A stretch of 64,000 nucleotides of DNA from Candidatus Bathyarchaeota archaeon. Its GTDB lineage: Archaea; Thermoproteota; Bathyarchaeia; Bathyarchaeales; Bathycorpusculaceae. Below are positions 6,600-32,428 of the stretch, in pieces. How positions within the stretch are numbered: the first letter of the stretch is position 1; each line of letters starts with the position of its first letter. A program made the translations under genes and the position numbers. The notes under the pieces were generated by a model. It had not been told where the DNA came from. It made no database searches and saw only the letters and a list, made by a program, of their open reading frames with translations. The stretch covers positions 1,120,001 to 1,184,000 of the forward strand of contig CAWGYA010000008.1 in NCBI GenBank assembly GCA_963826715.1, in the 5' to 3' direction.

Positions 6600-9500
6600 T
6601 TACGTCGGTGTTTTTCTTCGTTTTAGTAGAAAAGTCACAATCGCCAAGGCTATGCAAACAATTACTACTGCTATTGCCGAAATTGTGAGGGTAGAGGAAT
6701 CTATTGTTGTTGACTTTTCGCCACTTGAGAAAACCACTGACAGGCTGTGGATGCTAAAATGTATCGTAAACCAAACGTAGTAGTTGTTTCCATCTTGGGT
6801 GAAACCTTGATTTTCTGCGATTTCATTGTCTATAAAGACGGTGGGTTTTGTTCCAAAGTGTATCTCGTTTTTAGTTACGGTTATGTTTCCAAAACCAAAT
6901 GTTCCGTTTTCCCCTGTTACTGTGAAAGAGAGTGTTGTTATTTTCGCAGTTTGGTCTACTTGGATTTTAGCGTTGGAGATTTGTTTTGTGGTTATGTTTC
7001 CGCTGACAGTAAAAAGTTCGGTTGAGCCATCAAAAACTGTTATTGGTCCTTTGGTTGCGGAGGGTGTTGGAGTGGATGTGGGCTTTGGTGTTGGGGTTGA
7101 TGTCTGTGAAGTCGTGGGGTTTGTTGTTGAGCTAGTTGAAGGTGAAATAGATTCTGATGGCTGGGCTAGGACAATTATTGATGTCGTTGTTGAGGCTGTG
7201 TTTCCGGCTACGTCTTTTACAGTTAATAATGTTATGTATGTTCCAATGCTGGAGTATGTGTGGTTTGTTGTCACTCCTGTGGCAGTTGTGCCGTCGTCAA
7301 AGTCCCAGTGATAACTTGCTATGCCTGAGTTGTCGGTGCTATTACTTCCGTTTAAAACGACACTGTTTCCCAGGGTGATGGTTTGGCTGGAACCCGCATC
7401 CGGGGTTGGAGTTGTCATGTCAAGCACTATAGAAGCATCGTAAATTGAAGTTAATCCCGCATTGTCTCTGAATTGGACATAGACAACTTTTATAGCATCA
7501 TTATTTGGGAGTTGCCAAGTTTTAGAAATTGAAAAATTTTGCCAATCAGACCAAGTAACATTGTCATTGGAAAAACGCATTGTTGCTGCATTGGAGTTAT
7601 TGTCAGAGAGTGACAATGTCAGGTTAACTGTAGTATTATTGATGTATTGGGCACTGTTTTCGATTGTGATTGAGCCTGATGGGGGCGTAGTGTCAAGGAT
7701 TATGTTGGAAGTTGCAGTGAAAATAAGTCCAGCATTGTCCTTGATTTGGTAGTAAACTGTTTTTGATCCATCGCCTGTACTTAATGTCCATGTTCTGCTA
7801 TCTTTCGGCGTCTCCCATTGGGTGTTATCCCAGACGCCATTATTGCTGAATCTTACTTGATTTATTCCCGACGTCGCATCTGTGGCTGTTAATGATAAAG
7901 TGACCAAAGCAGAGCTAGTATATGTTGCTTCATTATTAATTTGGACAGATCCTGATGGCGGTGAGGTATCAAGAGTTATTGTGCTTGAGTATGTAATTGA
8001 TTGTAAACCTGCAGCATCTTTTACTTGATAATAAACTGTTTTCAATCCATCTCCAATAGTTAGAGACCAAGCTTTTGTGTCGAACGGGTTTTCCCATGGT
8101 TCTGTATCCCATACGCCATCATTGCTAAAGCGGACCTTATCAATGCCTGATGTTTGGTCGGTGAAGGTTAAAAATAATGTTACAAAAACTGATGTAGTGT
8201 AAGCACTTGTTTGGCTTATTGAAATTGAACCGAAGGGTTGGATTGTGTCTATTTGGAAGGTGAAACTTCCGTATGTGCTGTTGTTTGCTGCGTTGTCTTT
8301 GGATTTTACATAGAAGATGTGGGTTCCATCGGTTTGGGGTGTTAATATGACAGATTTCGTTGTGGTCCAGGTTTCTGGTCCATTATCTACTCGCCAGTAG
8401 TATCCTGCTACGCCACTTTTAGAGTCATTTGCTGACCAATTGAATGTGGGCGTATTATTTGTTAACCACCCAGTGAATCCATCGTCCGGATTAGGAATTG
8501 TAGGCGGGGTTAGGTCAAGGATGAAGGTCCAAGTTGGTGACCAATCGCTCCAGCCATTGATATTGTATGCTCTTACGTGCCATGTATAAGTGCCCTCAGT
8601 AAGGAACGTTAGCTGAAAAGAGGTGCTTGTTGTATTGTAAATCCCTGGTGAGGGTCCAGAAATTTCGATTTGATAGCTTGTGGCATCTGTAGAGTTGCTC
8701 CATCTGAACAAGGCGTTATTGCTTGCATTTACATAGTTGTTGGTCGGGGTTATTTGCGTTGGGGCAGAAGGAGCAGGTATATAGTTGTAATACAGGGTAT
8801 AATTACCCGTGCTTATGTTCAAAAGATTTTTTACTCTTAAATAGTAATATCCGCTTTCTAGTATCTGAAAATTAATACGGAATTGAAAGTTGCCTCCTAA
8901 ATCGTCATCATAGGTTAACAATTTTTGGTCAGAATCATATAGATAACCGTACGTATCCATTGAGCTATTTGTGTAGAATGTATAAGTGCCTGGGCTTGCG
9001 TAGAAACGGATATAGTCGTTGTCACCTGCAGGTTCTATGCTTCTCAACTGATGCTGCAAAGAAGTGGTCACTGTCATTGAACTGAATTGAGAGAAACTAT
9101 CATCAGGTTCGTAATTATCACCAATATTTAGTGTTATTGTGGAGTAGTGGTTTTTTCCTTCGCCTGTACCGTTAATGATAAATGTATAGTTTCCATGAGG
9201 CGCGATTGGGCTTGATTGAACGGTGAATGTAGAAGTGAACGTGGGGTTACCAGACTGCTGATTGAAAATAAATGAGAAATCAGAGGTTACATTTGTGCAT
9301 GATAACGAGACAAGTGTGGATGTTCCGCTAGTCAATGTCGATGTAATATTGTAAGTTGCTGAACCCTCTGGTGCTATTGTTTGAGAGTTGGGTGACGCAG
9401 AGAGCTGAAAGTCGAATTCAGTGCTTGATGACAAAATTTGGAGCTGATCTGTCCGCCATCCACTTGAAGCCAGTAGAGTACCATAACCAGGTGGTCCCAT

Positions 9501-11408
9501 CCAAACATTCCATGATACATCATAAGATCCTGGAGCTATAGTTGGGCTTGTAGCAAATTGTCTGTTTAGTGTATTGTCTCCGCCAAGAACTTTAACATAG
9601 ATGTCATTTGAGGTATCATTTATTTCATTGATTGTTCCGTGGAGGCGGATGGATGTACCTAGACCTATCTGAATTAGGGAATAACTGCTTGGATTGTTGA
9701 TGCTATAGTTTGTTGTTAATGTGGAACCACGTACAACACTTGAAGAATCTAAAAGAGGGTTCGTCAGCGAGATATCGCTATTTACACCAAAAAAGCTGGC
9801 AAAGTTGTGAAAATTAATTGACCCTAGACCAGTTACGGCATCCCAACCGGTTTGGACAGAGTAGTATCCATTGTTTCCATATCTATAGACGTCATGGAAG
9901 GAGACATTGTACCTGTTTGTTCCGTAAATGCTGTAGAATGCGTTGTTATCTAAATTCCAATTTCCATCCAAAGCAACTGCTGCAATACCTGCCATCAAAG
10001 GCGCGGATAGACTTGTGCCACCCCAACCGGTCTGTCTATCGCCATCAATGTAAATCGTAACCCCTGAGGCGGGATCGGCGTCAAGACAAATGTCGGGGAT
10101 GGCCCGCATGCCTGAAGTATTGGGAATACCTGCATTTGCTTGAAATGCTGGTTCCAAAAATATGTTAGAGTAACCTCCACCGCTTCCGCTCCAACCATTT
10201 TCAAAGTATTGGTTAGTCCCTTGGACTGTGTTGCTATAAAGTGTGGTTCCTCCGACCGCGATTACGTTTGGGTCTGATGCAGGATACTGGACGCTAATGT
10301 TACTTCCACCATTATAGGCACCGCTATCGCCTGTTGAAACAAAAACTTTGATTCCTTTTGCTGCAGCAGCTGCTAGAATGTGGGAATAACTGTTTGTTTC
10401 TTCACCACCGAAGCTTAGGGAGATGATATCTGGTGGATTAGTTTGTTGGACAAGGGTATTGATAGCTTGAAAAAGGCTGCTATAGTAGTTGTCAGGTGCA
10501 AGTTGTAGTATTATTGCAGCCTCGGGAGCCATTGCATGAGCCCATTCAACATCCAATGCTGTTTCAGTAGCCCAGCCGCTGTCTGATCCCCCTGTTCCAT
10601 TAATTGTTAAAGATAAGGCTGGAAGTCCAAAAAGAGAATTAAAGGCGTTTACGTCCGACACTATTGTTGGGTCGCCGTATGCATCTACGATGCCAATTGT
10701 TTGCCCTGCTCCAGTCCATCCATTTCCTATGGCAGTAGATATACCGTAGGCGCTCCTGAATTCGCTTGGTGCCTTATTGTATGCAAGCCCGGCGGGTTCT
10801 GCGAAATCTGATACTTTTGTAAGGAAGGGTTGGGCTGGAAAACTATTAATGTCGATTCCTGCGATATTGCATGAATTTAATTTACTTGGTACTGCGATGG
10901 TTTGTGAACTTGAATAAAACGTAATGTTTTGGTAAGAGTATAAACCGATTTGGGTTTCAAATGCTGTTGCGACATCGTCAACGGTGCCAACTGCGTTTAT
11001 TAGCAATCGATTTTGGCTTGTCGCAGTGACATTTATGTTGTGGGCTGAAAGGTAAGACAAAACTTGGTCGTAGTCTGCTTGATGGGGTGAATATTCTGTT
11101 TCAAATTCTTCCTCTGTTAATACGTTTTGTACTCCATACGTTATCATGCGAGAGCTATCTATGAAGTTCTGCAGTTTGTCATCGTTGCGTGTGCTAAAAC
11201 CAATTGCGAATTTAATTGTGCCCTCCGTCATTTCTCCTAAACTGGTCGTTTTCGCTGAGTCAAATTCTGGGGTTCTGGTGATTGATGCCGCAGGTTGATT
11301 GCTTTTGCTTTCGGAGAGACCGCTACTATTCGGCATTAAAATTTGCGCAAACAAGATGCAAAGAAGTATAATAACAAGTATCTTGTTTGAAGCTATTACT
11401 TTACTCAA
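6600..11408 (-). CDS. Cell-surface S53 (sedolisin/kumamolisin) serine protease with prodomain, Ig-like/PPC/PKD repeats, Thr/Pro linker and C-terminal TM anchor
   Basis: Signal peptide; ETALDVEW (catalytic Glu/Asp), STGDSG, GGTSLSAP (Ser), WDAVTGLGS Ca-site; PKD-like YHWDFDDG. Confidence 0.93.
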   Translation of the reverse strand: MSKVIASNKILVIILLCILFAQILMPNSSGLSESKSNQPAASITRTPEFDSAKTTSLGEMTEGTIKFAIGFSTRNDDKLQNFIDSSRMITYGVQNVLTEEEFETEYSPHQADYDQVLSYLSAHNINVTATSQNRLLINAVGTVDDVATAFETQIGLYSYQNITFYSSSQTIAVPSKLNSCNIAGIDINSFPAQPFLTKVSDFAEPAGLAYNKAPSEFRSAYGISTAIGNGWTGAGQTIGIVDAYGDPTIVSDVNAFNSLFGLPALSLTINGTGGSDSGWATETALDVEWAHAMAPEAAIILQLAPDNYYSSLFQAINTLVQQTNPPDIISLSFGGEETNSYSHILAAAAAKGIKVFVSTGDSGAYNGGSNISVQYPASDPNVIAVGGTTLYSNTVQGTNQYFENGWSGSGGGYSNIFLEPAFQANAGIPNTSGMRAIPDICLDADPASGVTIYIDGDRQTGWGGTSLSAPLMAGIAAVALDGNWNLDNNAFYSIYGTNRYNVSFHDVYRYGNNGYYSVQTGWDAVTGLGSINFHNFASFFGVNSDISLTNPLLDSSSVVRGSTLTTNYSINNPSSYSLIQIGLGTSIRLHGTINEINDTSNDIYVKVLGGDNTLNRQFATSPTIAPGSYDVSWNVWMGPPGYGTLLASSGWRTDQLQILSSSTEFDFQLSASPNSQTIAPEGSATYNITSTLTSGTSTLVSLSCTNVTSDFSFIFNQQSGNPTFTSTFTVQSSPIAPHGNYTFIINGTGEGKNHYSTITLNIGDNYEPDDSFSQFSSMTVTTSLQHQLRSIEPAGDNDYIRFYASPGTYTFYTNSSMDTYGYLYDSDQKLLTYDDDLGGNFQFRINFQILESGYYYLRVKNLLNISTGNYTLYYNYIPAPSAPTQITPTNNYVNASNNALFRWSNSTDATSYQIEISGPSPGIYNTTSTSFQLTFLTEGTYTWHVRAYNINGWSDWSPTWTFILDLTPPTIPNPDDGFTGWLTNNTPTFNWSANDSKSGVAGYYWRVDNGPETWTTTKSVILTPQTDGTHIFYVKSKDNAANNSTYGSFTFQIDTIQPFGSISISQTSAYTTSVFVTLFLTFTDQTSGIDKVRFSNDGVWDTEPWENPFDTKAWSLTIGDGLKTVYYQVKDAAGLQSITYSSTITLDTSPPSGSVQINNEATYTSSALVTLSLTATDATSGINQVRFSNNGVWDNTQWETPKDSRTWTLSTGDGSKTVYYQIKDNAGLIFTATSNIILDTTPPSGSITIENSAQYINNTTVNLTLSLSDNNSNAATMRFSNDNVTWSDWQNFSISKTWQLPNNDAIKVVYVQFRDNAGLTSIYDASIVLDMTTPTPDAGSSQTITLGNSVVLNGSNSTDNSGIASYHWDFDDGTTATGVTTNHTYSSIGTYITLLTVKDVAGNTASTTTSIIVLAQPSESISPSTSSTTNPTTSQTSTPTPKPTSTPTPSATKGPITVFDGSTELFTVSGNITTKQISNAKIQVDQTAKITTLSFTVTGENGTFGFGNITVTKNEIHFGTKPTVFIDNEIAENQGFTQDGNNYYVWFTIHFSIHSLSVVFSSGEKSTTIDSSTLTISAIAVVIVCIALAIVTFLLKRRKTPT
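7425..8255 (-). repeat. Three tandem ~92-aa Ig-like modules within the S53 protease
   Basis: Repeated (I/L)DT.PP.GS..I....YT.S..V.L.L...D..SG....RFSN....W...W.L..GDG.KTVY.Q.KD.AGL; coordinates approximate. Confidence 0.85.
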
Positions 11409-12357: not shown

Positions 12358-13632
12358 CTATCTGTATCTCAAAAGTGCCGCGAACCCACCCAATGCAGAA
12401 AGTCGCGCTTTCTCTTCTGTGCCTGTAAAAATAACCTCAACTTTTGCATCTGTTTGTGCTGCTGCATCCTCCAAAACATCCACCATATCCTTTTCCACAA
12501 TCTCCCATTCTATTCCCTTGCATTTCATGCAGGGCGTCGCCAACAGCGTTTGAAGTGTAGTTGTATCTTTCTTTTTGAGTATTTCTGATTTGCCAAGACC
12601 GCATTTTTTGCATAGGGCTTCAACTTCATAGAGATCAGAATCGTCAGTTATGAGTGCAATTTCAACTGCTCCTCTCTTAAGATCCTCCAGAACAGAATCT
12701 AAACCGGTGGTCGCCAAACCTTGTTCTTTATTGAGTTCTGCTTCGAGTCGCATCATTGTCTTTTTCTCTTCTGGTCCACACATGCTTTTTAGTGTCTCGG
12801 AGGATTTGGCGAGCATTTCGCGTATGCCGTCTTCACATGCAGTTTGAGTGTCAACCACATTTAGTAGGGCATTTTTAAGTTCATAATGCAAAAAATTGCC
12901 TTTAATGAATTCGTTTTTCGTTAACCCTGGTCCACCTACAATTAGTACAGTAGCTTTTTGTTTTTCCAGAAACGCCTTAGCTGAGTGCTCGGCTATTCTG
13001 TTGAAGAAATAGGTGATTTCCATGTCGCGTTCGCGTTCGTAGCGACGTTGACTCTGTCCACCTTTGCTTGTTTTGCCGGGTACACCCGAGGTGAGGTTTT
13101 CTAAAAATTCAATGTGTTCTCCATTGCGTATGGCAATGGTTGCTTGTTTTGCGTCGATTGCGATTAAGCCAACTATTCGTTGGTCTCTTAGCATTTGTCT
13201 AAGCTGTTCCAACTCGAAATGGTTCGTTATCTCTCTATAGAATTTGTTCACGGGTTTAGGGGGAACGAGTTCTTCGATGTTTAAAGTCTCTTTATCCTGA
13301 TTGATTCCAGCAAATATTCCTGCGAAGAGTACAAGTCCATTCTCTGGCGCTTGTTTCTGCTGTTTTACCCTCAGGATTATGCCTCGGAGGGCTTCTTGGA
13401 TTCGTTGGTTGGTGTTTCTGGATTTTAAACTCGCAGTTTCAATGTCTTCTTTGAGGTTCGCCACAATGGTGTCAATTGATGCGTGAGCTGGTATGTAAAG
13501 AGAGACAAATTCGTTGTTTGTTGCTTGTTTTTCAGAGAGGTGTGCGATGAGTTTGCGTAGCTTATGTTGTTTTGCGGAATAGCTGGTTGTCATTTGGCAG
13601 CCGTAGAAATGAGTGACTTTTTCTGTAATCAT
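12358..13632 (-). CDS. Archaeal release factor 1 (aRF1/eRF1) paralog
   Basis: VSLYIP, PENGLVLFAG, SGVPGKTSKGGQSQRRYER, GGPGLTK, GGFAALLRY; Zn ribbon CKKC/CMKC; start may be 13593. Confidence 0.92.
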   Translation of the reverse strand: MITEKVTHFYGCQMTTSYSAKQHKLRKLIAHLSEKQATNNEFVSLYIPAHASIDTIVANLKEDIETASLKSRNTNQRIQEALRGIILRVKQQKQAPENGLVLFAGIFAGINQDKETLNIEELVPPKPVNKFYREITNHFELEQLRQMLRDQRIVGLIAIDAKQATIAIRNGEHIEFLENLTSGVPGKTSKGGQSQRRYERERDMEITYFFNRIAEHSAKAFLEKQKATVLIVGGPGLTKNEFIKGNFLHYELKNALLNVVDTQTACEDGIREMLAKSSETLKSMCGPEEKKTMMRLEAELNKEQGLATTGLDSVLEDLKRGAVEIALITDDSDLYEVEALCKKCGLGKSEILKKKDTTTLQTLLATPCMKCKGIEWEIVEKDMVDVLEDAAAQTDAKVEVIFTGTEEKARLSALGGFAALLRYR

Positions 13633-13706: not shown

Positions 13707-13991
13707 TTATGGAAAGGTGGCAAATTCGCTCCAATGCTGTGCTAAGTATGCAATTGCCCAGATAATTAAGCCTATGTAGACTACCCAAAGCCATTTAGTT
13801 ACGGGTCCTTTGGAGTCGCGGATTGTTCCTGCGAAATCTTCAGAGTTTTTTTCTGTTTCTTCAACAGTGTATTCGTCAGAGCTTCGGACAATTAAGAAGA
13901 TGGCAATTGATACTAATCCAACAATAAGTAATGTGACATATGCATAGATTGGATCAACAAATACTATGTGCGATAGAAAAGACTGATTCAA
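13707..13991 (-). CDS. Small membrane protein resembling the cbb3 CcoP/FixP N-terminal domain
   Basis: EDFAGTIRDSKGPVTKWLWVVYIGLIIWAIAYL resembles FixP_N (DGIEE.DNPLP.WW..LF); last gene of the cco operon. Confidence 0.6.
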   Translation of the reverse strand: MNQSFLSHIVFVDPIYAYVTLLIVGLVSIAIFLIVRSSDEYTVEETEKNSEDFAGTIRDSKGPVTKWLWVVYIGLIIWAIAYLAQHWSEFATFP

Positions 13992-13993
13992 TT

Positions 13994-14140
13994 TTATTCT
14001 TCATCCTCCTCAAGGGGCAGAGAGCATAGGAAATCATTGGATTCGAACTGTTTTGTTTTAAACGCCCAAACCACAAATCCTGCAGTTATCAAAGTTATCA
14101 ACAGCGCTCCTATCGTGTAAATGAGCATGTCTATGTTCAC
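13994..14140 (-). CDS. ccoS: cbb3 oxidase maturation protein CcoS/FixS (48 aa, absent from ORF track)
   Basis: My translation MNIDMLIYTIGALLITLITAGFVVWAFKTKQFESNDFLCSLPLEEDEE; WA.K..QF motif and acidic tail; GGAGG SD; GTG overlaps upstream TGA. Confidence 0.8.
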   Translation of the reverse strand: MNIDMLIYTIGALLITLITAGFVVWAFKTKQFESNDFLCSLPLEEDEE

Positions 14141-15741
14141 AACCTAAACCTCCTTGAACTGCAATTTCGTTGACTTTGCAGTTTTGTTTTTTCATAAATG
14201 ATTTTTTGTTGCTTAAACTTTAGTTCCCAAAGTGCAATCGCAGACAATATAATCATAGCAGTAGTAGTCGATGCGCCTAAACTGGTTAAGTATCCAGCGG
14301 ATTCGGGTCCGCCTTTTAGATTTCTTGCGTAAGCATCAGTGTATTGGGGTGCCCACTTGGCATTATAATCTTGAACGGTAGAAAAACTCTGAACATAAAA
14401 TATAGCCTCATAGATTTCGTTATCTGATAATGCAAATTTCCAAGGAGGCATGTTTGTTGTTTCTACCCCTTCTCGTGCTTTCCAAACATAACGTCCATAA
14501 TTTTCAAAATCGCTCCCTGATTCCGTAAAGTTGGCTGGCACTGGAATAATATAGCCGCCATTGACTTTCCCTGAAGCTGGTCCGTCTCCTTGACCATTTT
14601 CACCGTGGCATTGGGCGCAATATAGAGTGAAGAGATCTTGTCCTGCTTTGAATTGTTGTTGAGTGCCTGCTATTGGTGGCGAATTAAGGGTTGTTTGTGC
14701 GAAGTTGTCGCCTTCAGCATCGGAGATGTCACCTGATATTGTTCTTGCTGAGCCAAATACAAAACTCATCTCGTAAATTGCGATCATTTGGATTTGGGTG
14801 TTGCTTAGTGACAAACCCCATGGAGGCATAGCTGTTCCGGGTACTCCTTCGGTGACGCGCCAGATATGGTAATTATTGCCTGGGAATGTTGCGATTCTCT
14901 CGTTTAGGTTGGCTGGTTGTGTAACTACATGGCGTGCGTAAGGGCCCTGAGCGTTTCCTGAGCCACCGTGGCATGGCAAACAGCGTTGGGTATAGTTTGC
15001 TTTTGCGGTGTTATAAATTGCTGCCCATTGATCGCCTAATGATGCGTTGCCGTTGAATACGTCATTTTCTATATCGTATTGGGATAGAACTGTCATGTAT
15101 ATTGATCCAAATTGGTTTGTTGTATTCAGGTAATCTTGGGGTACTGCAGGATGGTACGCGGCGTTGTTGGTTATGGATGTCTCAACTTGGAGATTTTTTT
15201 GTCCTAAGTTTTGAATGTAGGCGATTAGGGCATCGATTTGGGTGTCGGTTAAGAAGCCGAAGTTTGGCATTATCGAACCTGGGCTTACGCTTCTTGGGTC
15301 TTTGTCGTGGGTTTGATGCCAAATAGTTGGTCGCATGCCTCCTATCTGAGCAAGGTCTGGACCCGTTCTCTCTGTCCCCAACGCGTTGGGACTGTCATAA
15401 ACGTAGTCACCTTCTTGTGAAACGTTGCCTATTCCCCAATCTGCAGCTCTAACTTGTTGAGAGTGGCAGTAGAAGCACCCTAAAGTCATGAATAAGTTTC
15501 TTCCTTCCGCTTCCTGAGTGGTGTATGTGTGAGCTGTATCGCTTGGGGGAATATCTAAAAGAAACATGTAGGGGGCAACCACCACCATGCTGACCATAAG
15601 CAGAAATACGGCTATTCCACCTGCTGCTATGGGGAATAGATTTTTGATTTGGATCTTTTTTCCTAATGTTTTAGTTTGTTTAGTTACTGACCTTTCGATT
15701 CGATCTAATCCATTTTCAAGTTTTTTTTCGGTATTATTCAT
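14137..15741 (-). CDS. ccoO: cbb3 oxidase subunit II (CcoO) fused to two additional cytochrome c domains (CcoP-like)
   Basis: GCFYCHSQQVR, GTERTGPDLAQIG, DPRSVSPGSIMP; further CLPCH and CAQCH each followed by MPPW; N- and C-terminal TMs. Confidence 0.9.
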   Translation of the reverse strand: MNNTEKKLENGLDRIERSVTKQTKTLGKKIQIKNLFPIAAGGIAVFLLMVSMVVVAPYMFLLDIPPSDTAHTYTTQEAEGRNLFMTLGCFYCHSQQVRAADWGIGNVSQEGDYVYDSPNALGTERTGPDLAQIGGMRPTIWHQTHDKDPRSVSPGSIMPNFGFLTDTQIDALIAYIQNLGQKNLQVETSITNNAAYHPAVPQDYLNTTNQFGSIYMTVLSQYDIENDVFNGNASLGDQWAAIYNTAKANYTQRCLPCHGGSGNAQGPYARHVVTQPANLNERIATFPGNNYHIWRVTEGVPGTAMPPWGLSLSNTQIQMIAIYEMSFVFGSARTISGDISDAEGDNFAQTTLNSPPIAGTQQQFKAGQDLFTLYCAQCHGENGQGDGPASGKVNGGYIIPVPANFTESGSDFENYGRYVWKAREGVETTNMPPWKFALSDNEIYEAIFYVQSFSTVQDYNAKWAPQYTDAYARNLKGGPESAGYLTSLGASTTTAMIILSAIALWELKFKQQKIIYEKTKLQSQRNCSSRRFRL

Positions 15742-17164
15742 CGCTTAAAACCCCCTTTTGTTTAGAAATCAAGTTCAGGGTCGGTTTTGATATAATTGTC
15801 ATTATGATGTTTATGGCAAAGAGAAAAGCGGATACGACAACGATTCCGCCGCCGATAGCTCTAATGATAAAGTAAGGTGCCAAAGTTGGTAGGACTTGGG
15901 CAATTGTTTGGTGGGTAAACCAACCAGCGTTAGCTACTAACCCTGCGAGCATCATACCTAACATGAAAATAATAAAACCTAGTAGAGAAACCCACCAGGT
16001 TACATCCATGAGTTTTTTGTTGTATAGTGGTTTTCCGCTTATTCGGGGGACTAGATAGAACATCATGCCTACGATGGTGAGTCCGAAGGATGCGTAGAGT
16101 GCTAAATGTGAATGCATAACGGTCCATTGTGAATAGTGTAGATAGAGGTTCATGTCTCGGAGCGCTTGGAATGTTCCTTGAATGGAGACGAAAATATAGC
16201 ATACGAAGCCGAAAATAATGAACCTTAAAGGTACATTGCTTAAGAAAGTATGCCAGGCGCCGCGAAGTGTCATGCCGATGTTTGTTGCAAATGTTAACAC
16301 CGAAATCATCATGAGCCCACTTGTGGTGACGGCGATGGTTTTTAGCCATTCGGGAATTGAAGATTGTAATAGATGATGGCCTCCAACGCCTGTATAGAAG
16401 AATGCTAATGCGAAGAAGCTGATTAGTGAGAGGGTTACGCTGTAGAGGGCACGTTTTGAAAGTTTAGGGATAAAATAGTACCATAACGCCAATCCAAAAG
16501 GTGTGAACCAAAGACCCAGTACGTTATGTCCGTAGAACCAGTTAACTATGGCGTCAGTTAAGCCAAAAAGGGCTCCACTTGGCGGTTGCCACATGACGTT
16601 TCCTATGAAATATACAATTGGGAACCACAAAAATATCCCGGCAAAAAACCAGAGGCTTACATAGAGTTTGCGTTCTCTCCTTTTTAGGATCGTGCCAAGT
16701 ATGGTGATGCCAATTATAACTAAGGTAATCATTATCAAAACATCAATTATCCACGGCATCTCTGCGTATTCTCTGGCTTGTGTGTTTCCAACCATTATCA
16801 AAAGAATACCTGATAACACCGCAACGTTCCATAATATAGCTGCGAGCTTGCCTATTTGGGGTTTATATAATGATACTTTGCTGAGTCTCGGGGCAACGTA
16901 ATACATGGCACCTATAAGACCAGAAGATAAGAAACCAAAGAGTAAACCGTTTACATGGGCGGGTCTGATTCTTCCAAAGGTATCGAACGCTGAATCAACC
17001 AGAAATGTGGGAACAAAAAACTTAATTGCCATTATCATGCCAAAGATAACAAAAATTGGGAACCAGACTGTTGCAGCATACAACCAATATTTTGCAACGG
17101 AATCGCTGCTTTTTAAATCAACAGAATTTTTCTCTGCTTTGGCTGCTTCCAAGGTTTCTCCCAT
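15734..17164 (-). CDS. ccoN: cbb3-type (C-family) heme-copper oxidase subunit I
   Basis: FGRIRPAH, REYAE, WFYGHN, FYTGVGGHHL (helix VII Tyr plus CuB His pair), HYSQWTVMHSH; ATG at 17164 with GGTGG SD. Confidence 0.93.
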   Translation of the reverse strand: MGETLEAAKAEKNSVDLKSSDSVAKYWLYAATVWFPIFVIFGMIMAIKFFVPTFLVDSAFDTFGRIRPAHVNGLLFGFLSSGLIGAMYYVAPRLSKVSLYKPQIGKLAAILWNVAVLSGILLIMVGNTQAREYAEMPWIIDVLIMITLVIIGITILGTILKRRERKLYVSLWFFAGIFLWFPIVYFIGNVMWQPPSGALFGLTDAIVNWFYGHNVLGLWFTPFGLALWYYFIPKLSKRALYSVTLSLISFFALAFFYTGVGGHHLLQSSIPEWLKTIAVTTSGLMMISVLTFATNIGMTLRGAWHTFLSNVPLRFIIFGFVCYIFVSIQGTFQALRDMNLYLHYSQWTVMHSHLALYASFGLTIVGMMFYLVPRISGKPLYNKKLMDVTWWVSLLGFIIFMLGMMLAGLVANAGWFTHQTIAQVLPTLAPYFIIRAIGGGIVVVSAFLFAINIIMTIISKPTLNLISKQKGVLSDE

Positions 17165-17307
17165 AAAAACCACCAAAATTGACAATTAAATGTCGGATGA
17201 TTATCTTTATATAACTTTTGATTACCCTGTGCTACCTATAAATTTTTATTTCCCAAAATATTTGAATAAGTTAAGAAATAAAATTATATTTTACTGGGTA
17301 GGCTGCT

Positions 17308-17751
17308 GTGGTAGTTACTTTTGAAGTAGTTCATGAGTTGATGGCGCAGGCAAATGTAGTTATCTTAATCGGCGCTGCCTTTTTGATAGTTGTTAGTCTT
17401 TTTCTTGAACGAAAAAAGAAGTGGGTTTGGCATGGCAACTCGATGATGGTAGTGATGATAATTACCGTTCTGCTGGTCCTTGCGCACATGGGGCCTTCTT
17501 TTGTTTCAGCTGTTCTTGAGGCCGTCAATAGTTTAGATATCGTTGCGGTTGTGGGTGTTATCCATGGTGTAATAGGGGTGTTTGCCCTCGTTTTAGGCGC
17601 AGGGTTAGTTTGGGTGTGGTCGATTAACGAATCAAGCAGTACAGGGTACTGTTTTTCAAGAAAAAACCTTATGTTAAAAATCTTGGCGCTATGGCTTGTT
17701 TCTTTGGGGCTTGGCGGTTTATACTACTTGTTGCACATTACTCTTGGATAA
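17308..17751 (+). CDS. 4-TM membrane protein, DUF420-like
   Basis: Four hydrophobic helices with His residues (WHG, AHM, IHG); divergent from ccoN. Confidence 0.55.
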   Translation: MVVTFEVVHELMAQANVVILIGAAFLIVVSLFLERKKKWVWHGNSMMVVMIITVLLVLAHMGPSFVSAVLEAVNSLDIVAVVGVIHGVIGVFALVLGAGLVWVWSINESSSTGYCFSRKNLMLKILALWLVSLGLGGLYYLLHITLG

Positions 17752-19654
17752 CGCTTTGGTCGATTGTCGTCTTTGTTAAAGCTACATCCTTTATTAGTTG
17801 AGCGAAAATAGCCAAAGCTAATAAAATTATGCCTAGCCAAAGAAGATAAATTAATGGGTTATTTTGCACTTTCAGAGACAGGGTGTCTGAAAGTGAACTG
17901 GTGCCACTAAAGGTGTCAGTAAGGCTGTTATAGAGTTCATCTGTAAATTCTAAATGGAGGTAGATATCTCCGCTGGTTGTGCTGATTATGAGAGGTTTAA
18001 GCATTAGACCATAGTTGGGGTAGAAGCTAGCGGATATATTTCCTCTGTAACTTGTTTTGTCATCATGGACGGTTACGTCTGCGGTGATAATCGAATATTC
18101 TGAGATTACTGCTTTAGCTTGGGCATTGTAAACTTTTGATGTGCTATTATCTAAATGTATACTGTTAATTTGAATGGTTAGATTCAAAGCTTTATTGGTA
18201 GAGTTAACCTTCACATCTTCTAGTGTTGCTGAGGTTTTTGCTCCGGCGCTTACGAAAATACCTAGAAGTAAAACAATCACAGCTAAACCAAACAATCCTT
18301 GCCAAAACAACTTTTTAGTCTGAGCGGTTCTTACCTGTTTGTACACTAACCCCATTAATGTCACAATTAAAAGAGGGAGAGTTAAAGTTAGAAGAGTATT
18401 TACTGGCGCTATGCCTATCAATGAAAGGATAGCTCCTGTAACCAATGCTACTAGAACTATCAGAAATTGCCGGGCGTAGTGAGTTTTTTCGTTAAGGCTA
18501 AACCCAACTAGCGCTATAACAAATAGAACTACAAAAGGATAAGTCCACAGGCTGTATGCGAAATTGGTAAAGGCTAAACCGGCAAGGCATACGGCAGCTA
18601 TAAGGATTAATGCCCAGAATCCTACAAATGAGGAACGTGCAGTCAATGATTTTTTATCAACTTCCAGTTTGATGAGGGGTTTGCGTTTATTTTTTGATAG
18701 GTAAAAGAAGTAACCCATCATAGCAACAGCGTATGAGAGCATTACCGGGCCAATGGCGGATGAAGCATATGAATGGACTGATTGGGTTAATCCGCCGCGG
18801 GTTAAGGCGCTTAGAAATACTAGACTTGCGAATGTGAGCATAATCATTGTTTCTTGGGTTAGGCTGGTTTTTCCTTTTGAAATTTCTTTTACGATAAAGT
18901 AGGCTGTTAAAATGAGCCATGGTAGAAGTGAAGCTGTTTCCACGGGATCCCATGCCCAATATCCTCCCCACCCTAAGACGGCATATGCCCAAACGCCGCC
19001 TAAAGCTATGCCTATTGTAAGCAGCAACCAAGCCAAATGTGTTGATGCTTTAAAGAGCCTCATAGCGTCTAGGTCTTTGTTAGTTTTCAAACTTGCTAGC
19101 GAGAGTGCGAAAGCCAAAACCACAAAGGCATAAGCTGAAAAAACAATCGGCGGGTGAATTGCCATCCATAGACTCTGGAGTTGTGGGTTGAGTCCTATGC
19201 CCTGAACTGGGGTTATTGCTAAGTGTTCAAAAGGGTTTCTTAAGAGGCAAACAATTAAGAAAACAATAACCGCGATTCCCAAGACCTGATAGGTTACTGT
19301 TCGGGTTTTCTCTATTTTTTTGAGTCCCGTGATTCGCAGCAAAAAATATACTGCCATTAATATTATTGTTAATAGCAGCATTGAACCTCCTGCCCCTGCC
19401 CAGCTTGCATATATCTTGGAGAGAAGCGAGGTTCCCGTTGAGCTAAATGAGTAAACTGCTGAGTAAGAGAAGTTGTTGTTTATGAATGCTAAAAGAAGCG
19501 ACACATACAAACCTAAAATGATTAGGAAAGCAGTGGCGGAAGCGAAAATACCGCCTCCGTTTTTCCATTTTTGACTTATACCGGTTAGCGGAAAAAGTAT
19601 ATCTAATAAAATAAGCAAAACGGCTACAATTAGAAGAAATATTTCCCAGTTCAT
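17738..19654 (-). CDS. ccmF: Cytochrome c biogenesis heme lyase CcmF (System I)
   Basis: WAGAGGSMLL, GLNPQLQ..MAIHPP, WAYAVLGWGGYWAWDPVETASLLPW (WWD domain), LTRGG..SVHSYA. Confidence 0.93.
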   Translation of the reverse strand: MNWEIFLLIVAVLLILLDILFPLTGISQKWKNGGGIFASATAFLIILGLYVSLLLAFINNNFSYSAVYSFSSTGTSLLSKIYASWAGAGGSMLLLTIILMAVYFLLRITGLKKIEKTRTVTYQVLGIAVIVFLIVCLLRNPFEHLAITPVQGIGLNPQLQSLWMAIHPPIVFSAYAFVVLAFALSLASLKTNKDLDAMRLFKASTHLAWLLLTIGIALGGVWAYAVLGWGGYWAWDPVETASLLPWLILTAYFIVKEISKGKTSLTQETMIMLTFASLVFLSALTRGGLTQSVHSYASSAIGPVMLSYAVAMMGYFFYLSKNKRKPLIKLEVDKKSLTARSSFVGFWALILIAAVCLAGLAFTNFAYSLWTYPFVVLFVIALVGFSLNEKTHYARQFLIVLVALVTGAILSLIGIAPVNTLLTLTLPLLIVTLMGLVYKQVRTAQTKKLFWQGLFGLAVIVLLLGIFVSAGAKTSATLEDVKVNSTNKALNLTIQINSIHLDNSTSKVYNAQAKAVISEYSIITADVTVHDDKTSYRGNISASFYPNYGLMLKPLIISTTSGDIYLHLEFTDELYNSLTDTFSGTSSLSDTLSLKVQNNPLIYLLWLGIILLALAIFAQLIKDVALTKTTIDQSVIQE

Positions 19655-23077: not shown

Positions 23078-25993
23078 TTAGCGGTTTTTCGATGCCCTAC
23101 TAAAAAGCAGAATTAGTAGCACTATAACTATAGCCACTATAACGTTAATGGGAAATAAATAATCTATCAACTCTAGTTGGTTTGTATTTGCTGACGGTGT
23201 AGGTAAAGTTGGGCTTGGCAATGGTGATGCTGTTTGTGTTGGAGAAGGTGTCGCTGTTGCTGTTGGCTGTGAAGTAGTAAGTGTTATTGCGCTTGCAAGG
23301 TTTGTTACCAAGCCCGCGTTGTCTTTTATCTGGCAATAAACGGTTTTTAACCCTTCACCACTAGTGACTTGCCACTTTTGACTGGGTGTATAATTTTGCC
23401 ATGGAATCTGGTCCCACACGTTGTTATTGCTGAATCGCATTTGGGTAACCTCCGATAAGGAAGTGGCGGTCAGGCTCAGGGTTACGCTATTCGAGGTTGT
23501 TGTTGCTTGACCATTGTTTATTTGCATTGAACCTTGAGGGGGTGTCTTTTCCAGTTTAAGATCCATCAACATTAGGTGATTTAACTCCATGTTGCCTGTT
23601 CCGTAGGCGTCCCATGTAACCCAGTATTCTAAAGTGTTGTTTGTGCTTTCTGTTGTTATGATGGGTTGACCGTTAGTGGTGACGTTGCAGATTGAACCAT
23701 TATTAACTGAATAATATATTTGTGTGCCAGCTAAATCAGATGTTAAATTTATTTCTACATTCGAGGTATGCCATGAATTAACATAGTTATAGTCGTTAGT
23801 TACTGTTGGAAGGCGAGTTATATTCACGCAAAAGTTAGAGGCGCCGTCGTTTACAACGATGCTATGTTGCCCCGCGGTTGTGGTTGGAACAGTTATAGTT
23901 GCATTGAAATTGCCGTTTGCCTCAACGGTAGTCGTGCCCAAACTGACGTTGCCGTTCCAAAGCAAAGATGCTATTCCAGGGCTGAACCATTTGCCTGCGA
24001 TAACTATAGACTGTCCGTTTTCGACAAAAACATCCGTAGTTAAATTTGTGCAGTTACCATACAGTCCTGTGGCGGTTTGATTGCCTATTTGGGTTAAGCC
24101 TCTTCGCCATTCCATGTAGGGATCTGTTGAATTGTATGAGTTGCCGTTGTGGTTGTCAGTGATTTTGAAAAAGATGTTGTTAATGCTCGGTTGATTGTCT
24201 CCAACTTGATTGTTTTGTATTAGGTCTGGAGCCGTTAATGTGTAGGTGAAGTTTTCGGTGGCTATTGCTAAGTTGTTTATTACTTGTGTCCAATCTAAGT
24301 TTATTGGGTTTAAGTAGGAAATGTTTACGGAATGACCTGTAAAGCCGTTGCCAGTTAGCGTGATTATGCCAGCGGGTGGACCAGAGGTTGGCGAAACGTT
24401 AACTGTTGGTTGTGCCATTGAATATTTTACGGTTAACGTTACATGGTCGTCTTTTATGGTGTGAACTGGCGTTTGTGTTGAGATGTTGTTTCCTACGGCG
24501 AAGTAGTTTATTATTCCAGTGTCGTTAGTTCCCCATTTATCGGGTCCTGCATCGTACACTTTCATGAAGAAGAGTTGATTGTAAAGGGAATTAGTGTAAT
24601 CCTTGAACTCGGTTAAATCAAACACAATATTATTTGAGCTAAAAGGCAGGCTGCCTCCGAGGAAAATATCACCATCCTGATTAAACTCGTCAAATGTTTT
24701 CGTAACTAAAGGTGCATTTGGGCTTCCTAACCCAAAAGTAATGTTGCAGTCTTGCCTCGATGTGTGACTAATGTTGAAGGTTGCAAGTATCTGCGGTTGG
24801 TAACCAATTAAATCTTGAGATAAAACCACGGGGTCATTTTTGGCTGAAAGCTCTGCCATAACTTGGTAAGACACCCAATAGCATCCGTCAGGCACATTTT
24901 CCCATGAGTTTGGTCCTTCTCCTATTCCCCAAGAATTAACAACCTTAAATGCGCCACTGTGCAATGTGCCATTTTCAATGTAAGAGATGCTGTCGTTGTA
25001 CCCCACAATTGTTTGGGCGTGATCCAGCCCACCGAACTGCCAATTGTCAAGGGTAAACAAATCTTGGCTGTTATCATCGGGGATGGGGACAATATTATCG
25101 TAGGCGTCAATAGCGAAAGTTGCAACGTTCCCTGCAGCCAACCAGTTTTTTAGGTTTGTTATGCCGTTTGTTTCGTTGACGTAAATGTATTGGTAACTGT
25201 AGGTGCTGTTTGAACGATAATACGGTGCTTGAGCCCACGCAGCCTCTGAAGGCCACGCATTGCATTCGCTCTGATTATAGGGCATGTTTAGCCAAGAACT
25301 GACGCCAATAGAGCACATAACCATGATAGGTCCCTCCAAGGAACCGCCAATATCTGAGCCATTATTAACTAAGTTGTAAACGAAGGCTGGACTCATAATT
25401 TCGCTTTGATAGGGAGCAGAGACATGACCGTTGTCATAGTGGCCAGGAGAATATTCATAATTGTTTGACCCATCGTACACCCATGTTGCTTGGCTTAAAT
25501 TCCATTGGTGCTCCTTCGCTTCCTGATAAGATTTGGCGTAATAAACATTAGCAAAAAAAGAACATGAACCCTGTGTGCCTTGGTCGCCAATAGGTGGGAA
25601 CCATGCAGTTTGGGATAGGTCCACTGCATTTGGTATTGATTCTGTATATAAAACTTCATCAACCACGTAACCGTTTTTTGCTATATCGTTCCACTCGCTG
25701 GGGGTTGGAGGAGTTAAACCTGTTCCGTGTCCATCAACAATCTGGTTATAGTTTTTCCCTCCTTGGTAAACACCAACGCTACTTTCGTAGGCTTTAAGCT
25801 CGTTTGAAGTCATCTTATGTTCTTTCAAGCCTAAGTTGCCATAATTCACCTGTGTAGATGAGTAAATTTGGTTTGAGGCTGAATTCTTAGACGTTTGGGC
25901 AGTAGCGTAACTATTGTGTAAACATGAAATAGCAAGGGGTAAAAGTAAAACAGCGATGACGACTAAAACTTCTAACTTTAAGTTTCTGTGCAC
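23078..25993 (-). CDS. Cell-surface papain-like C1A cysteine protease with Ig-like domains and TM anchor
   Basis: PPIGDQGTQGSC (oxyanion Gln, catalytic Cys), DHAQTIVGYND (His), KVVNSWG (Asn); signal peptide; Thr/Pro linker plus TM. Confidence 0.92.
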   Translation of the reverse strand: MHRNLKLEVLVVIAVLLLPLAISCLHNSYATAQTSKNSASNQIYSSTQVNYGNLGLKEHKMTSNELKAYESSVGVYQGGKNYNQIVDGHGTGLTPPTPSEWNDIAKNGYVVDEVLYTESIPNAVDLSQTAWFPPIGDQGTQGSCSFFANVYYAKSYQEAKEHQWNLSQATWVYDGSNNYEYSPGHYDNGHVSAPYQSEIMSPAFVYNLVNNGSDIGGSLEGPIMVMCSIGVSSWLNMPYNQSECNAWPSEAAWAQAPYYRSNSTYSYQYIYVNETNGITNLKNWLAAGNVATFAIDAYDNIVPIPDDNSQDLFTLDNWQFGGLDHAQTIVGYNDSISYIENGTLHSGAFKVVNSWGIGEGPNSWENVPDGCYWVSYQVMAELSAKNDPVVLSQDLIGYQPQILATFNISHTSRQDCNITFGLGSPNAPLVTKTFDEFNQDGDIFLGGSLPFSSNNIVFDLTEFKDYTNSLYNQLFFMKVYDAGPDKWGTNDTGIINYFAVGNNISTQTPVHTIKDDHVTLTVKYSMAQPTVNVSPTSGPPAGIITLTGNGFTGHSVNISYLNPINLDWTQVINNLAIATENFTYTLTAPDLIQNNQVGDNQPSINNIFFKITDNHNGNSYNSTDPYMEWRRGLTQIGNQTATGLYGNCTNLTTDVFVENGQSIVIAGKWFSPGIASLLWNGNVSLGTTTVEANGNFNATITVPTTTAGQHSIVVNDGASNFCVNITRLPTVTNDYNYVNSWHTSNVEINLTSDLAGTQIYYSVNNGSICNVTTNGQPIITTESTNNTLEYWVTWDAYGTGNMELNHLMLMDLKLEKTPPQGSMQINNGQATTTSNSVTLSLTATSLSEVTQMRFSNNNVWDQIPWQNYTPSQKWQVTSGEGLKTVYCQIKDNAGLVTNLASAITLTTSQPTATATPSPTQTASPLPSPTLPTPSANTNQLELIDYLFPINVIVAIVIVLLILLFSRASKNR

Positions 25994-26307: not shown

Positions 26308-26742
26308 TTATTCCCTGGCTAAATGCTCATTGTTTAGCACATTTAGCATCTCGTCGACTGTCAGAATTCTTATTCCTTTGAAATCTTTCAACGCAAGCAA
26401 ATGTTTGTCACCTGAAACGATGTAGTCAGTTTTACTGTCATATGCTGTTCTTATAATAATGTCATCATCAGGGTCTTCAGTGATAACTTTAAAATGGGAT
26501 ATCACTTGTACGATTTCAGACCTTTTTAAGGCATTCAGAAATAGGGTTACATCCTGTTCACTTACGTACCTTACTGCCTTTGGGTCCTCTGTTATTTCGA
26601 GGAACTCTTCTATTATTGCTTTGGACAAAATTAGTTGTTTGTCTTTTACTAATCTATATAGGAGAACGCGTGGCTTGCCGGTTTTTATTAGGGATGAAAT
26701 TAAGACATTTGTGTCTAGAACTACTTTCATTTCAGTTGTCAC
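26308..26742 (-). CDS. vapC: PIN-domain toxin (VapC-like, PIN_3)
   Basis: VVLDTNVLIS, DPDDD, YIVSGDKHLL. Confidence 0.92.
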   Translation of the reverse strand: MTTEMKVVLDTNVLISSLIKTGKPRVLLYRLVKDKQLILSKAIIEEFLEITEDPKAVRYVSEQDVTLFLNALKRSEIVQVISHFKVITEDPDDDIIIRTAYDSKTDYIVSGDKHLLALKDFKGIRILTVDEMLNVLNNEHLARE

Positions 26743-27032
26743 ATTGGGCTTCTTTTCTTCCGCCTGTGCTCATGGATTATTTGATTTATCCCGTTGTTTG
26801 AGATTTCACCATGTTTTGCGATTCTTTCGTCGATTCTTTTGTACATAGCTTCAAGCTCTTTTGATAAGTCTGGCTCTTCAAATTTTCTTAGTATCACCGA
26901 ATCGTTGCATTGATAAACAAGAAATTTAGTTTTCGCTTTCAAGCCCATTTTTGATCGAATTTTTGCTGGTATGACAACTTGGCCTTTCTCGCTAAGAATC
27001 GTGAGTTCTGCGTTTTCATTCTGAGCCATCAA
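26739..27032 (-). CDS. AbrB/MazE-family antitoxin
   Basis: LSEKGQVVIPAKIRSKMGL; 4-nt overlap with the PIN gene. Confidence 0.9.
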   Translation of the reverse strand: MMAQNENAELTILSEKGQVVIPAKIRSKMGLKAKTKFLVYQCNDSVILRKFEEPDLSKELEAMYKRIDERIAKHGEISNNGINQIIHEHRRKKRSPM

Positions 27033-29580: not shown

Positions 29581-29658
29581 AAATCATCACAAAAAGATGT
29601 TCAATCAAGTAAACATAATAGATATATTGTTAAATGGTTTTTTTAAGTATGTCTATTT

Positions 29659-30444: not shown

Positions 30445-30543
30445 GACTCGGACTTTTTTGTGGTCGGTTTTGGGCTTTGTGGGGGCGTTTTTGTAGTTAG
30501 TGGCGAAGCTTGCGTTGCCTTGGTTAAATCGTAGCACTAAATG

Positions 30544-30589
30544 GTAATATTTTAATACTGGGTATTACTTTTGTAGATAATCGTGTTAC
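30544..30589. promoter_or_regulatory. Possible NikR-type operator upstream of the Ni/Co transporter
   Basis: GTAATA-N13-TATTAC inverted repeat, plus a downstream GTGTTAC half-site before the GGAGG SD. Confidence 0.35.
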
Positions 30590-30610
30590 TGTGGGAGGTG
30601 GAGCGAAAAA

Positions 30611-31297: not shown

Positions 31298-31605
31298 AAA
31301 AATTGGCAAACCAGAAAAAATTAAATCAAAAAACGGTTACCGTGGGTTTAGCTGTTGCCTTAATCTTTGTTTTGCTGGGGGTTTTTATCTTTTCTAATGC
31401 TATGGAAACGCTTGATGTGAAGGCTGAAGAACTTGGAATGCAAGAACATCCGATTTTTGAAGCTCCCTTTGCTGACTATAACATCGCTGGAAACAACAGC
31501 ATTTGGGTTACTCTATTTGTCGCTATCGTTTCAACGCTTTTACTGTTTGTTACAGGTTTGGTGGTAGCTAAAATAATACACAAGAGGAAGGTTGCAATAA
31601 AATGA
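31294..31605 (+). CDS. NikN/PDGLE-like accessory membrane subunit
   Basis: 2 TMs flanking ETLD..AE..APFADY; overlaps both neighbours by 4 nt. Confidence 0.75.
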   Translation: MKKLANQKKLNQKTVTVGLAVALIFVLLGVFIFSNAMETLDVKAEELGMQEHPIFEAPFADYNIAGNNSIWVTLFVAIVSTLLLFVTGLVVAKIIHKRKVAIK

Positions 31606-32414: not shown

Positions 32415-32428
32415 AAGGCTCCTGAAGC

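Follow-up and report, generated by a model that had tools for sequence, protein, structure and literature searches.

A probable cbb3-type oxygen reductase module, likely laterally acquired, in a Bathyarchaeia genome

Bathyarchaeia are usually regarded as strictly anaerobic. In the parts of the article used here, the soil lineage Houtuousia was described as (micro)aerobic, with cytochrome c oxidases like those of aerobic Sulfolobus and without the Wood-Ljungdahl pathway and pyruvate:ferredoxin oxidoreductase (Hou 2023, PMC10321748). For subgroup 6, a 'microoxic' reading rests on pyruvate oxidase and superoxide dismutase (SOD), and the word 'cytochrome' does not occur in the available portion of that text (Pan 2020, PMC7110647). 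C-family haem-copper oxidases (HCOs) are sparse among Archaea, and the helix-VII tyrosine that is needed for O2 reduction is absent from the nitric oxide reductase (NOR)-type families (Murali 2024, PMC11214002, in excerpt). In the literature, as far as its accessible text goes, no paper tying cbb3 or ccoN to Bathyarchaeia was found, and supplements such as the gene tables of Hou 2023 might list cbb3. Here we describe a module of six genes, five on the minus strand and one on the plus strand, at positions 13707-19654 of the window, by which we mean the whole stretch of 64,000 nt that was analyzed (G000:C8:1120001-1184000, where G000 is the code of the source genome; all locus coordinates are window positions). 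What we observe is the set of genes, the conserved key residues, the position in the trees, the occurrence across genomes and the signs of purifying selection; O2 as the substrate, the subunit roles and a physiological purpose are inferred: the module probably encodes a working and self-contained cbb3-type O2 reductase that was acquired laterally and likely serves trace-O2 removal with some energy conservation.

The catalytic subunit, CcoN, resembles subunit I of the cbb3 oxidase of P. stutzeri (3MK7/5DJQ) in its fold, haem and CuB histidines and helix-VII tyrosine, and a CcoO-type mono-haem subunit is shared as well. In comparisons with solved structures, five CcoN chains score 201-224 bits, with 3mk7_A as the best match (224.2 bits), whereas the ba3 oxidases score ~40-46 bits and NorB (3o0r_B) scores 39.1 bits. 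Among the NCBIfam models, ccoN (TIGR00780) gives 280.1 bits, CtaD 44.4 bits and SoxB 20.2 bits, and the NOR families give no match at E<=0.01. Six histidines, H77, H220, H270, H271, H358 and H360, align with histidines of 3mk7_A; we take them to be two ligands of the low-spin haem b, one of haem b3 and three of CuB. Y264 aligns with the helix-VII tyrosine in the 'vYiwagpHH' segment of 3mk7_A, six residues ahead of the HH pair, and no extra Glu ligand was seen in the alignment. These six histidines and Y264 are invariant in 12 CcoN relatives, down to 44% identity, so that the ligands and the tyrosine claimed in an earlier, sequence-only reading of this DNA are indeed present. Y223, S240 and Y317 of P. 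stutzeri, which presumably line the C-family proton channel, correspond to Y236, S253 and Y330 in the alignment, and H243 is replaced by Ser. The database copy of the protein (P0001) has 476 amino acids and the open reading frame (ORF) 483, and because of this shorter copy the true start may sit a few codons downstream of the ORF start.

With the cytochrome c-dependent NOR (NorB, 3O0R), CcoN shares the same superfamily branch and a cytochrome c partner subunit; it differs from it by the 39-bit match and by the tyrosine, which is absent from NORs and present here. Based on scores and residues, CcoN is assigned to the C-family oxidases rather than to the NORs. A grouping of CcoN with the NO reductases, which the sequence-only reading named as a possible refutation, is not what these comparisons give (224 vs 39 bits, tyrosine kept); neither of our two trees held NorB, so the separation rests on the scores and residues.

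The second subunit is a fusion of a mono-haem CcoO and a di-haem cytochrome c module (CcoO-c). It matches FixO (118.4 bits) and, over two stretches, Cytochrome_CBB3 (82.9 bits), and carries two class-I cytochrome c domains; its best NCBIfam model is NF011054, 'bifunctional subunit II/cytochrome c' (138.6 bits). Solved CcoO chains match with 76-88 bits, with the CXXCH and a Met-containing segment aligned. Against the CcoP model TIGR00782 it scores 59.7 bits (cut-off 180), and the di-haem part would thus be analogous to CcoP, with orthology unproven by this score. Unlike FixNOQP/CcoNOQP, the di-haem module is found on CcoO and not on CcoP, and the membrane part of CcoP is a separate protein of 94 amino acids; in effect, the cytochrome part of CcoP is shifted onto CcoO. 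In a census of the genome, 42 of 9845 ORFs of at least 50 amino acids carry a CXXCH motif and only CcoO-c carries three. Two other ORFs with two CXXCH motifs were considered as cytochromes and rejected, one being UvrA and the other a 106-amino-acid protein without a family. Among the 61 sampled genomes of the genus, PF13442 domains turn up in no gene other than that of CcoO-c, which has two of them in each of 8 genomes, and CcoO-c is the only evident c-type cytochrome of the genome.

Two small membrane proteins complete the part that resembles known cbb3 operons. The window copy of the 48-amino-acid protein scores below threshold for both FixQ (20.4 bits, cut-off 29) and FixS (16.6 bits, cut-off 23.1). 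When 11 members of its family are compared, 10 are hit by FixS (best E 9e-10) and 9 by FixQ (best E 4.7e-7), and they have a conserved motif GF.VW...T.QF...PLE.D; the small ORF that was named ccoS in the sequence-only reading exists, and its identity as CcoS or CcoQ is ambiguous from these scores. The 94-amino-acid protein scores 22.8 bits for FixP_N (cut-off 24.9), and 10 of 19 homologues match this domain at E<=0.01. Its gene follows the oxidase genes in most Bathyarchaeia loci and most loci of the related fused-type clade described below, in many Chloroflexia and in some Desulfobacterales. Probably, it is the membrane part of CcoP retained as a separate subunit. A complex model of CcoN with this protein gave an ipSAE of 0.79, compared with 0.01 for the best of three controls; this mark is reached by 58 of 80 solved complexes and by 2 of 110 mismatched pairs. 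Between runs, at least 76% of the contacts are shared, and the pLDDT of the partner does not fall below 71. The model supports, without demonstrating, that the 94-amino-acid protein binds CcoN, and it may mirror a likeness to the solved cbb3 structures.

The gene order, ccoN, ccoO with the cytochrome c module, a small protein and the N-terminus of CcoP, mirrors ccoNOQP as found in a Rhizobium locus that we compared (Table 1). ccoN and ccoO-c overlap by 8 nt, ccoO-c and the 48-amino-acid ORF by 4 nt, and a gap of 2 nt separates the latter from the 94-amino-acid ORF, a packing as expected of one operon. The intact and tightly packed cluster beside ccmF that was described earlier is thus confirmed, gene by gene. 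It differs from the proteobacterial systems in CcoN identity (~28-36% by tblastn to plasmid-borne loci, most of them annotated ccoN) and in its archaeal host; no ccoGHI genes were seen beside the module, in an analysis without a search aimed at them.

Table 1. The six genes of the oxidase module and the evidence for each (window positions)
Gene product	Position	Strand	Evidence
CcmF/NrfE-like haem lyase	17738-19654	-	638 aa; PF01578 103.7 bits; TIGR03145 aligned over 6-617
Four-helix membrane protein, DUF420-like, with conserved histidines	17308-17751	+	147 aa; orthologue and atlas evidence
CcoN, catalytic subunit I, C-family haem-copper oxidase	15734-17185	-	483 aa; COX1 265.4 bits; TIGR00780 280.1 bits
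CcoO (mono-haem) with di-haem cytochrome c module and C-terminal hydrophobic stretch	14137-15741	-	534 aa; three CXXCH
Single-helix protein, CcoS/FixS- or CcoQ/FixQ-like	13994-14140	-	48 aa; sub-threshold Pfam scores
Two-helix FixP_N-like protein	13707-13991	-	94 aa; FixP_N 22.8 bits

A sixth conserved gene of the module, missed by the sequence-only reading, encodes a protein of 147 amino acids; it is divergent from ccoN and overlaps the 3' end of the ccmF-like gene by 14 nt. The window copy has no Pfam match at E<=0.01 and nothing in NCBIfam. DUF420 (PF04238) is weakly matched by 8 of 12 orthologues at E<=1 (best E 6.5e-4), and a protein atlas links it, with a feature score of 0.95, to clusters that have DUF420 in 12-32% of their members. 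All 12 orthologues share four histidines, and nearly all have a fifth. Orthologues at 220-245 bits are confined to the eight genomes with the module, and weaker paralogues bring the total to 52 of 61 genomes. These DUF420-like paralogues form a large uncharacterised membrane-protein family in the genus; three more are found in the source genome (C2:163215-163607, C2:328177-328557 and C2:22671-23075), one of them inside an open frame of 414 amino acids. For all six genes of the module pN/pS is 0.21-0.38 with saturated synonymous sites (CcoN 0.21, the 147-amino-acid protein 0.36 and the 48-amino-acid protein 0.38). This indicates purifying selection on all of them, and therefore even the small ORFs are maintained genes.

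The module sits in an archaeal surrounding. The source genome has 2.64 Mb in 8 contigs (96% complete, 3% contamination) and the window lies on a contig of 1.29 Mb. An archaeal eRF1 gene is located at 12358-13632, past the FixP_N-like end of the module, and an archaeal 23S rRNA gene at 1-2400, the window beginning inside this gene; the GC content stays at 0.40-0.43 from one flank of the locus to the other. The sequencing runs listed for this stretch are four soil-metagenome DNA runs from a single study, with no RNA run among them. Their contigs match the region at a likeness of at least 95% and span the eRF1/FixP_N and ccoN/DUF420-like junctions without joints; one bridging run, X1, may be the source sample of the genome. 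The sequence-only reading had mentioned an archaeal 23S gene and intron-containing tRNAs on the contig. The first is there; of the second, ARAGORN in its default mode found no tRNA in the window and, with introns allowed, a single tRNA-Val(CAC) with a 33-nt intron at 40462-40594.

Of the 61 genomes sampled from the genus, eight have the module (G000, G001, G014, G015, G022, G054, G055 and G071), a set on which four queries agree: the locus DNA, the full-length PF01578 protein, the high-scoring DUF420-like orthologues and the PF13442 domains. One carrier, G014, is a one-contig genome of 2.7 Mb. A bacterial contamination or a chimera, for which junction coverage had been proposed as a check, is thereby excluded by the bridging contigs, the even GC and this distribution. 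The eRF1 gene adjoins the module only in G000 and G055 and is near it in G071; the other genomes differ in context. In a class-wide survey of 401 genomes, strong CcoN matches occur in 11, from five genera of three families, and 31 more have weak matches only, at 23-31% identity and most of them in family f35, which presumably represent other HCO families. The HCOs of f35 are probably the A/B-type oxidases reported for Houtuousia, if f35 corresponds to Houtuousia, as we infer. Some genomes of the genus also hold a second, distant HCO-like gene, such as L007 (G015:C21:69791-73423; 519 amino acids, 27% identity) and one on G043:C10.

The closest loci, with 73-85% CcoN identity, all belong to metagenome-assembled genomes (MAGs) of Bathyarchaeota/Bathyarchaeia (L008, L010-L016 and L054); the L014 copy is identical to that of G022, of the same genus, and the L012 copy to that of G383. 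Together with the archaeal large-subunit rRNA and the eRF1 domains on the contig, the same-genus loci identify the host as a member of the Bathyarchaeia. In one Bathyarchaeia genome, two whole-module copies (L016 and L054; also G405:C14) lie ~0.8 Mb apart on the same contig of 2.47 Mb, and in L016 a frameshift or decay has broken both ccoN and ccoO-c into two ORFs. A next tier of CcoN relatives, at 48-57% identity, comes from Methanoperedens, a Methanolobus MAG, Dehalococcoidia, Syntrophales, Clostridia, Thermoleophilia and Coriobacteriia, and a third, at 36-47%, from Chloroflexia, Coriobacteriia/Eubacteriales and Desulfobacterales. In metagenomes there are more than 100 clusters of close homologues.

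In a CcoN tree of 84 rows, the Bathyarchaeia form one clade (support 100) within a clade of 36 rows (100), which also holds Methanoperedenaceae (9 rows) and a mixed bacterial group (15 rows). Bacterial fused forms are the sister group of the Bathyarchaeia clade, which nests together with the Methanoperedenaceae, and the ccoN of Rhizobium and Methylophaga lie on a branch of length 2.84. This tree left out the window copies L001 and L002, L009 as a guessed near-duplicate, the partial L015 and L053 and the frameshifted L016. A second tree of 30 rows, in which L009 was restored, gives a Bathyarchaeia clade of 21 rows (100/100) with the copy of family f24 as basal; the copies of genera g21 and g38, of family f7 and of G022 form an unresolved comb, and the main genus clade has 12 rows (100/100). 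The branching is consistent with a single old acquisition and numerous later losses, and transfers inside the class may have contributed. The suggestion of an acquired module agrees with the nesting of a well-supported Bathyarchaeia clade (100/100) among Methanoperedenaceae and anaerobe-type bacteria, and with a patchy presence, the module being found in 8 of the 61 genus genomes and in 11 of the 401 class genomes.

The nearest relatives in this supported clade are fused enzymes, in which CcoN, CcoO and the cytochrome c (subunits I and II and the cytochrome) form one protein, found in Methanoperedens and in MAGs of Methanolobus, Dehalococcoidia, Syntrophales, Clostridia and Coriobacteriia. All members of the 36-row clade outside the Bathyarchaeia that have a complete gene encode such a single protein of 879-1011 amino acids, whereas the Bathyarchaeia have two genes with the 8-nt overlap. 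In the fused-type loci, nearly all are followed by a FixP_N-like gene and some also by a CcoS-like gene; the full-length CcmF-like and DUF420-like genes are linked to the oxidase only in the Bathyarchaeia loci and not in the fused-type ones. In the Methanoperedenaceae literature, no description of this fused clade was found in the accessible parts of Leu et al. 2020 and of a 2026 review, where the text that mentions 'oxidase' or 'oxygen' does not describe terminal oxidases in this family either.

The haem lyase of the module has T. thermophilus CcmF (6zmq) as its best solved match (129.5 bits), and scores below the NCBIfam cut-offs. Like System I CcmF, it has the WWD motif, as WGGYWAWDPVE, near-identical to that of 6zmq, both flanking periplasmic histidines and a similar length and topology. 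The flanking H167 and H294, and also H567 and C356, are invariant in 121 relatives and H392 is conserved in 71%. Unlike System I CcmF, no CcmC/CcmE partner was found for it, and the column of the histidine of the Thermus 'AFLHTAF' segment is hydrophobic (Leu, Ile, Val or Phe in 121 of 121 relatives). We take this histidine to be a b-haem ligand; if that role is correct, this CcmF-like clade may have lost the ligand, which would fit a lyase that works without CcmE and can serve as a lead. The full-length form is found only in the eight cco-positive genomes and always adjoins cco. A homologue search with the protein gave, among the matches listed, close relatives at identities of at least 50%, with no outgroup or donor lineage. 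Short PF01578 proteins (CcsA/CcmC-like) occur in ~10 genomes of the genus and do not track the oxidase module.

As for the physiology of the host, CdhC of the Wood-Ljungdahl carbon monoxide dehydrogenase/acetyl-CoA synthase (CODH/ACS) is encoded by 51 of the 61 genomes of the genus, all eight with the module among them, and Fe/Mn SOD by 50 of 61, the source genome among them. The latter also encodes a Nuo-like complex of 11 subunits without NuoEFG, beside an H+-pyrophosphatase, and it has the cobalamin genes and those of tetrapyrrole synthesis as far as sirohaem/precorrin (HemA, L, B, C, D, SUMT and a SirC-like protein). In the portions of PMC10321748 considered here, the likeness to Houtuousia lies in a terminal oxidase in soil Bathyarchaeia that is read as a (micro)aerobic adaptation, and the difference in the C-family enzyme and the CODH/ACS kept in our case. 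A host lineage already known as aerobic had been named as a possible refutation of the sequence-only reading; (micro)aerobic Bathyarchaeia have already been proposed in print for a different lineage with a different oxidase (Hou 2023, PMC10321748, in the parts used), which makes the surprise smaller.

Several results weigh against the reading as a working O2 reductase. CcoN and CcoO-c score below the NCBIfam equivalog cut-offs (280.1 vs 583.15 for ccoN and 103.6 vs 200.65 for ccoO), scores that indicate a divergent subfamily. In the source genome, the only match to cytochrome b of a bc complex is one of 16.6 bits that is broken by stops, Rieske matches are limited to three proteins of 109-112 amino acids, and no cytochrome bd was found. 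Plastocyanin-type cupredoxins are absent from all eight cco-positive genomes (11 of 61 in the genus overall have one), and no class-I cytochrome c domain was found outside CcoO-c in the 61 genomes. As to quinone markers, the source genome has no MqnA and no MenD above the cut-off (MenD was searched in 11 genomes). For haem b, neither ferrochelatase nor HemE was found in it, and the sirohaem decarboxylase AhbA/B is lacking there as in 6 of the 8 cco-positive genomes. For the attachment of haem c, CcmE is found in none of the 61 genomes and CcmC and ResB in none of the proteins of the source genome, where the CcmF-like protein is the sole PF01578 protein. As the source genome is 96% complete, any single absence could be an assembly gap, and the pattern recurs across genomes. 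In the genus, AhbA/B is found in 23 of 61 genomes, 2 of the 8 with the module and 21 of the 53 without it; haem synthesis and the oxidase appear uncoupled, because neither AhbA/B nor the short PF01578 proteins track the module.

On present evidence, this is an oxidase without a recognisable donor, a haem-b source or a complete haem-c attachment system, as judged by searches whose scope did not extend to alternative complex III (ACIII) and haem import. These results bear on three suggestions of the sequence-only reading. Its own cytochrome c maturation stands for the CcmF-like protein and falls short for CcmE, CcmC and ResB. The proposed look for quinone synthesis, complex III and haem synthesis gave no MqnA, no MenD above the cut-off, no intact cytochrome b and no known route from sirohaem to haem, ACIII being outside the search. 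Of microaerobic respiration or O2/NO detoxification, the O2 reductase family is borne out, and respiration is not established, with no upstream chain and no haem-b route.

We propose the following mechanism. CcoN would reduce O2 at the haem b3-CuB-Tyr centre. Its electrons would come in by way of the CcoO/di-haem fusion, whose three c-haems would be anchored on the outer side of the membrane. The FixP_N-like protein may bind CcoN in the manner of the CcoP membrane helices, the CcoS/CcoQ-like small protein may aid assembly, and the CcmF-like protein would attach haem to the CcoO-c fusion. The module may have reached an ancestor of several Bathyarchaeia families by lateral transfer, out of a gene pool to which Methanoperedens and anaerobe-type bacteria also belong, and it was presumably lost later in most lineages. 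In soil, it would benefit its host by removing traces of O2 and thereby protecting it, and some energy could be conserved whenever O2 is available; since the O2-sensitive Wood-Ljungdahl enzyme is kept, protection is the most likely benefit.

One other possibility is that the enzyme is the terminal oxidase of a true microaerobic chain, running from the Nuo-like complex to a membrane carrier and an oxidoreductase beyond current families. The 11-subunit complex beside the H+-pyrophosphatase, the conserved positions that presumably line the proton channel and the abundance in the genus of DUF420-like proteins with conserved histidines would fit such a chain, yet no quinone-pathway markers, cytochrome b/bc1, soluble cytochrome c or cupredoxin were found, the module is present in only 8 of 61 genomes and the Wood-Ljungdahl enzyme is kept, so that we regard it as unlikely. 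We hold in the same low regard, as a speculative option, a plug-in oxidase that works without a conventional chain and would combine a CcmE-independent lyase devoid of the usual transmembrane histidine, scavenged haem, a surface tri-haem protein and non-canonical donors, for which Fe(II), reduced humics, hydroquinones or an unrecognised membrane partner are candidates. If this were true, a quinone-poor Wood-Ljungdahl archaeon without evident haem-b synthesis could consume O2, and the same logic might cover the fused enzymes of Methanoperedens and Dehalococcoidia.

Another hypothesis is that NO, and not O2, is what the enzyme mainly reduces or detoxifies, at soil microsites that are anoxic or denitrifying. 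Like the host, most organisms of the sister clade that carry the enzyme are of the anaerobe type, and C-family oxidases can reduce NO in vitro and NORs arose repeatedly from O2 reductases (Murali 2024, PMC11214002, in excerpt). The cross-link tyrosine and the three-histidine CuB site are kept, however, without the extra Glu ligand, and the low NorB score and the lack of any NCBIfam NOR match point the same way, which makes this explanation improbable. That the module is conditionally functional or silent in the source genome, where assembly would need external haem for want of a haem-b pathway, seems very improbable to us. AhbA/B, ferrochelatase and HemE were not found there, AhbA/B is rarer with the module than without it (2 of 8 vs 21 of 53 genomes) and the L016 second copy has frameshifts in ccoN and ccoO; against this stand six intact genes under purifying selection across deeply diverged copies, the more than 100 metagenome clusters and haem uptake, which is a known lifestyle in other heterotrophs. 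A bacterial contamination or an assembly chimera, which the mostly bacterial occurrence of the C family and the bacteria among the nearest non-Bathyarchaeia relatives might suggest, has a practically negligible chance in view of the archaeal eRF1 flank and 23S gene, the 1.29-Mb contig with even GC, the eight genomes including a one-contig one, the two junctions bridged by independent contigs and the monophyletic Bathyarchaeia clade.

Elsewhere in the window, the tRNA-Val edges a low-GC stretch at 34000-40000 (GC 0.34-0.36 vs ~0.41 elsewhere), in which the ORFs are mostly without Pfam matches and which may be an element integrated at the tRNA gene. At 27506-33286, a LarE-like PP-loop ATPase, LarC (Ni insertion, 371.8 bits) and a LarB-like AIR carboxylase adjoin a CbiM/CbiN-like/CbiQ/CbiO transporter, and the region looks like a cluster for nickel-pincer cofactor synthesis and metal uptake. 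Two very large secreted or anchored proteins, of 1602 and 971 amino acids, are encoded at 6600-11408 and 23078-25993; the first combines a pro-kumamolisin activation domain with a PKD domain, the second has no Pfam match, and by eye both show repeated C-terminal modules with an 'RFSN..VWD...W' motif. A PIN-domain protein (PIN_3, 53.6 bits) at 26308-26742 and the small ORF directly upstream on the same strand (26739-27032) may form a toxin-antitoxin pair.

Under the reading that we prefer, a laterally acquired O2 reductase, a high-affinity oxidase under selection in lineages that keep the Wood-Ljungdahl pathway would make it possible to test in concrete terms whether, and by what means, such organisms tolerate trace O2 or draw benefit from it. 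It also points to a little-discussed C-family clade that is common to the 'anaerobic' Methanoperedens, Dehalococcoidia and Syntrophales. The context in the Bathyarchaeia is unusual, with a sole cytochrome, a lone CcmF-like lyase and no donor chain found. Because the module is the only source in the genus of both the c-type cytochrome and the CcmF-like lyase, it may serve as a natural system, free of other such genes, in which minimal cytochrome c maturation can be tested.

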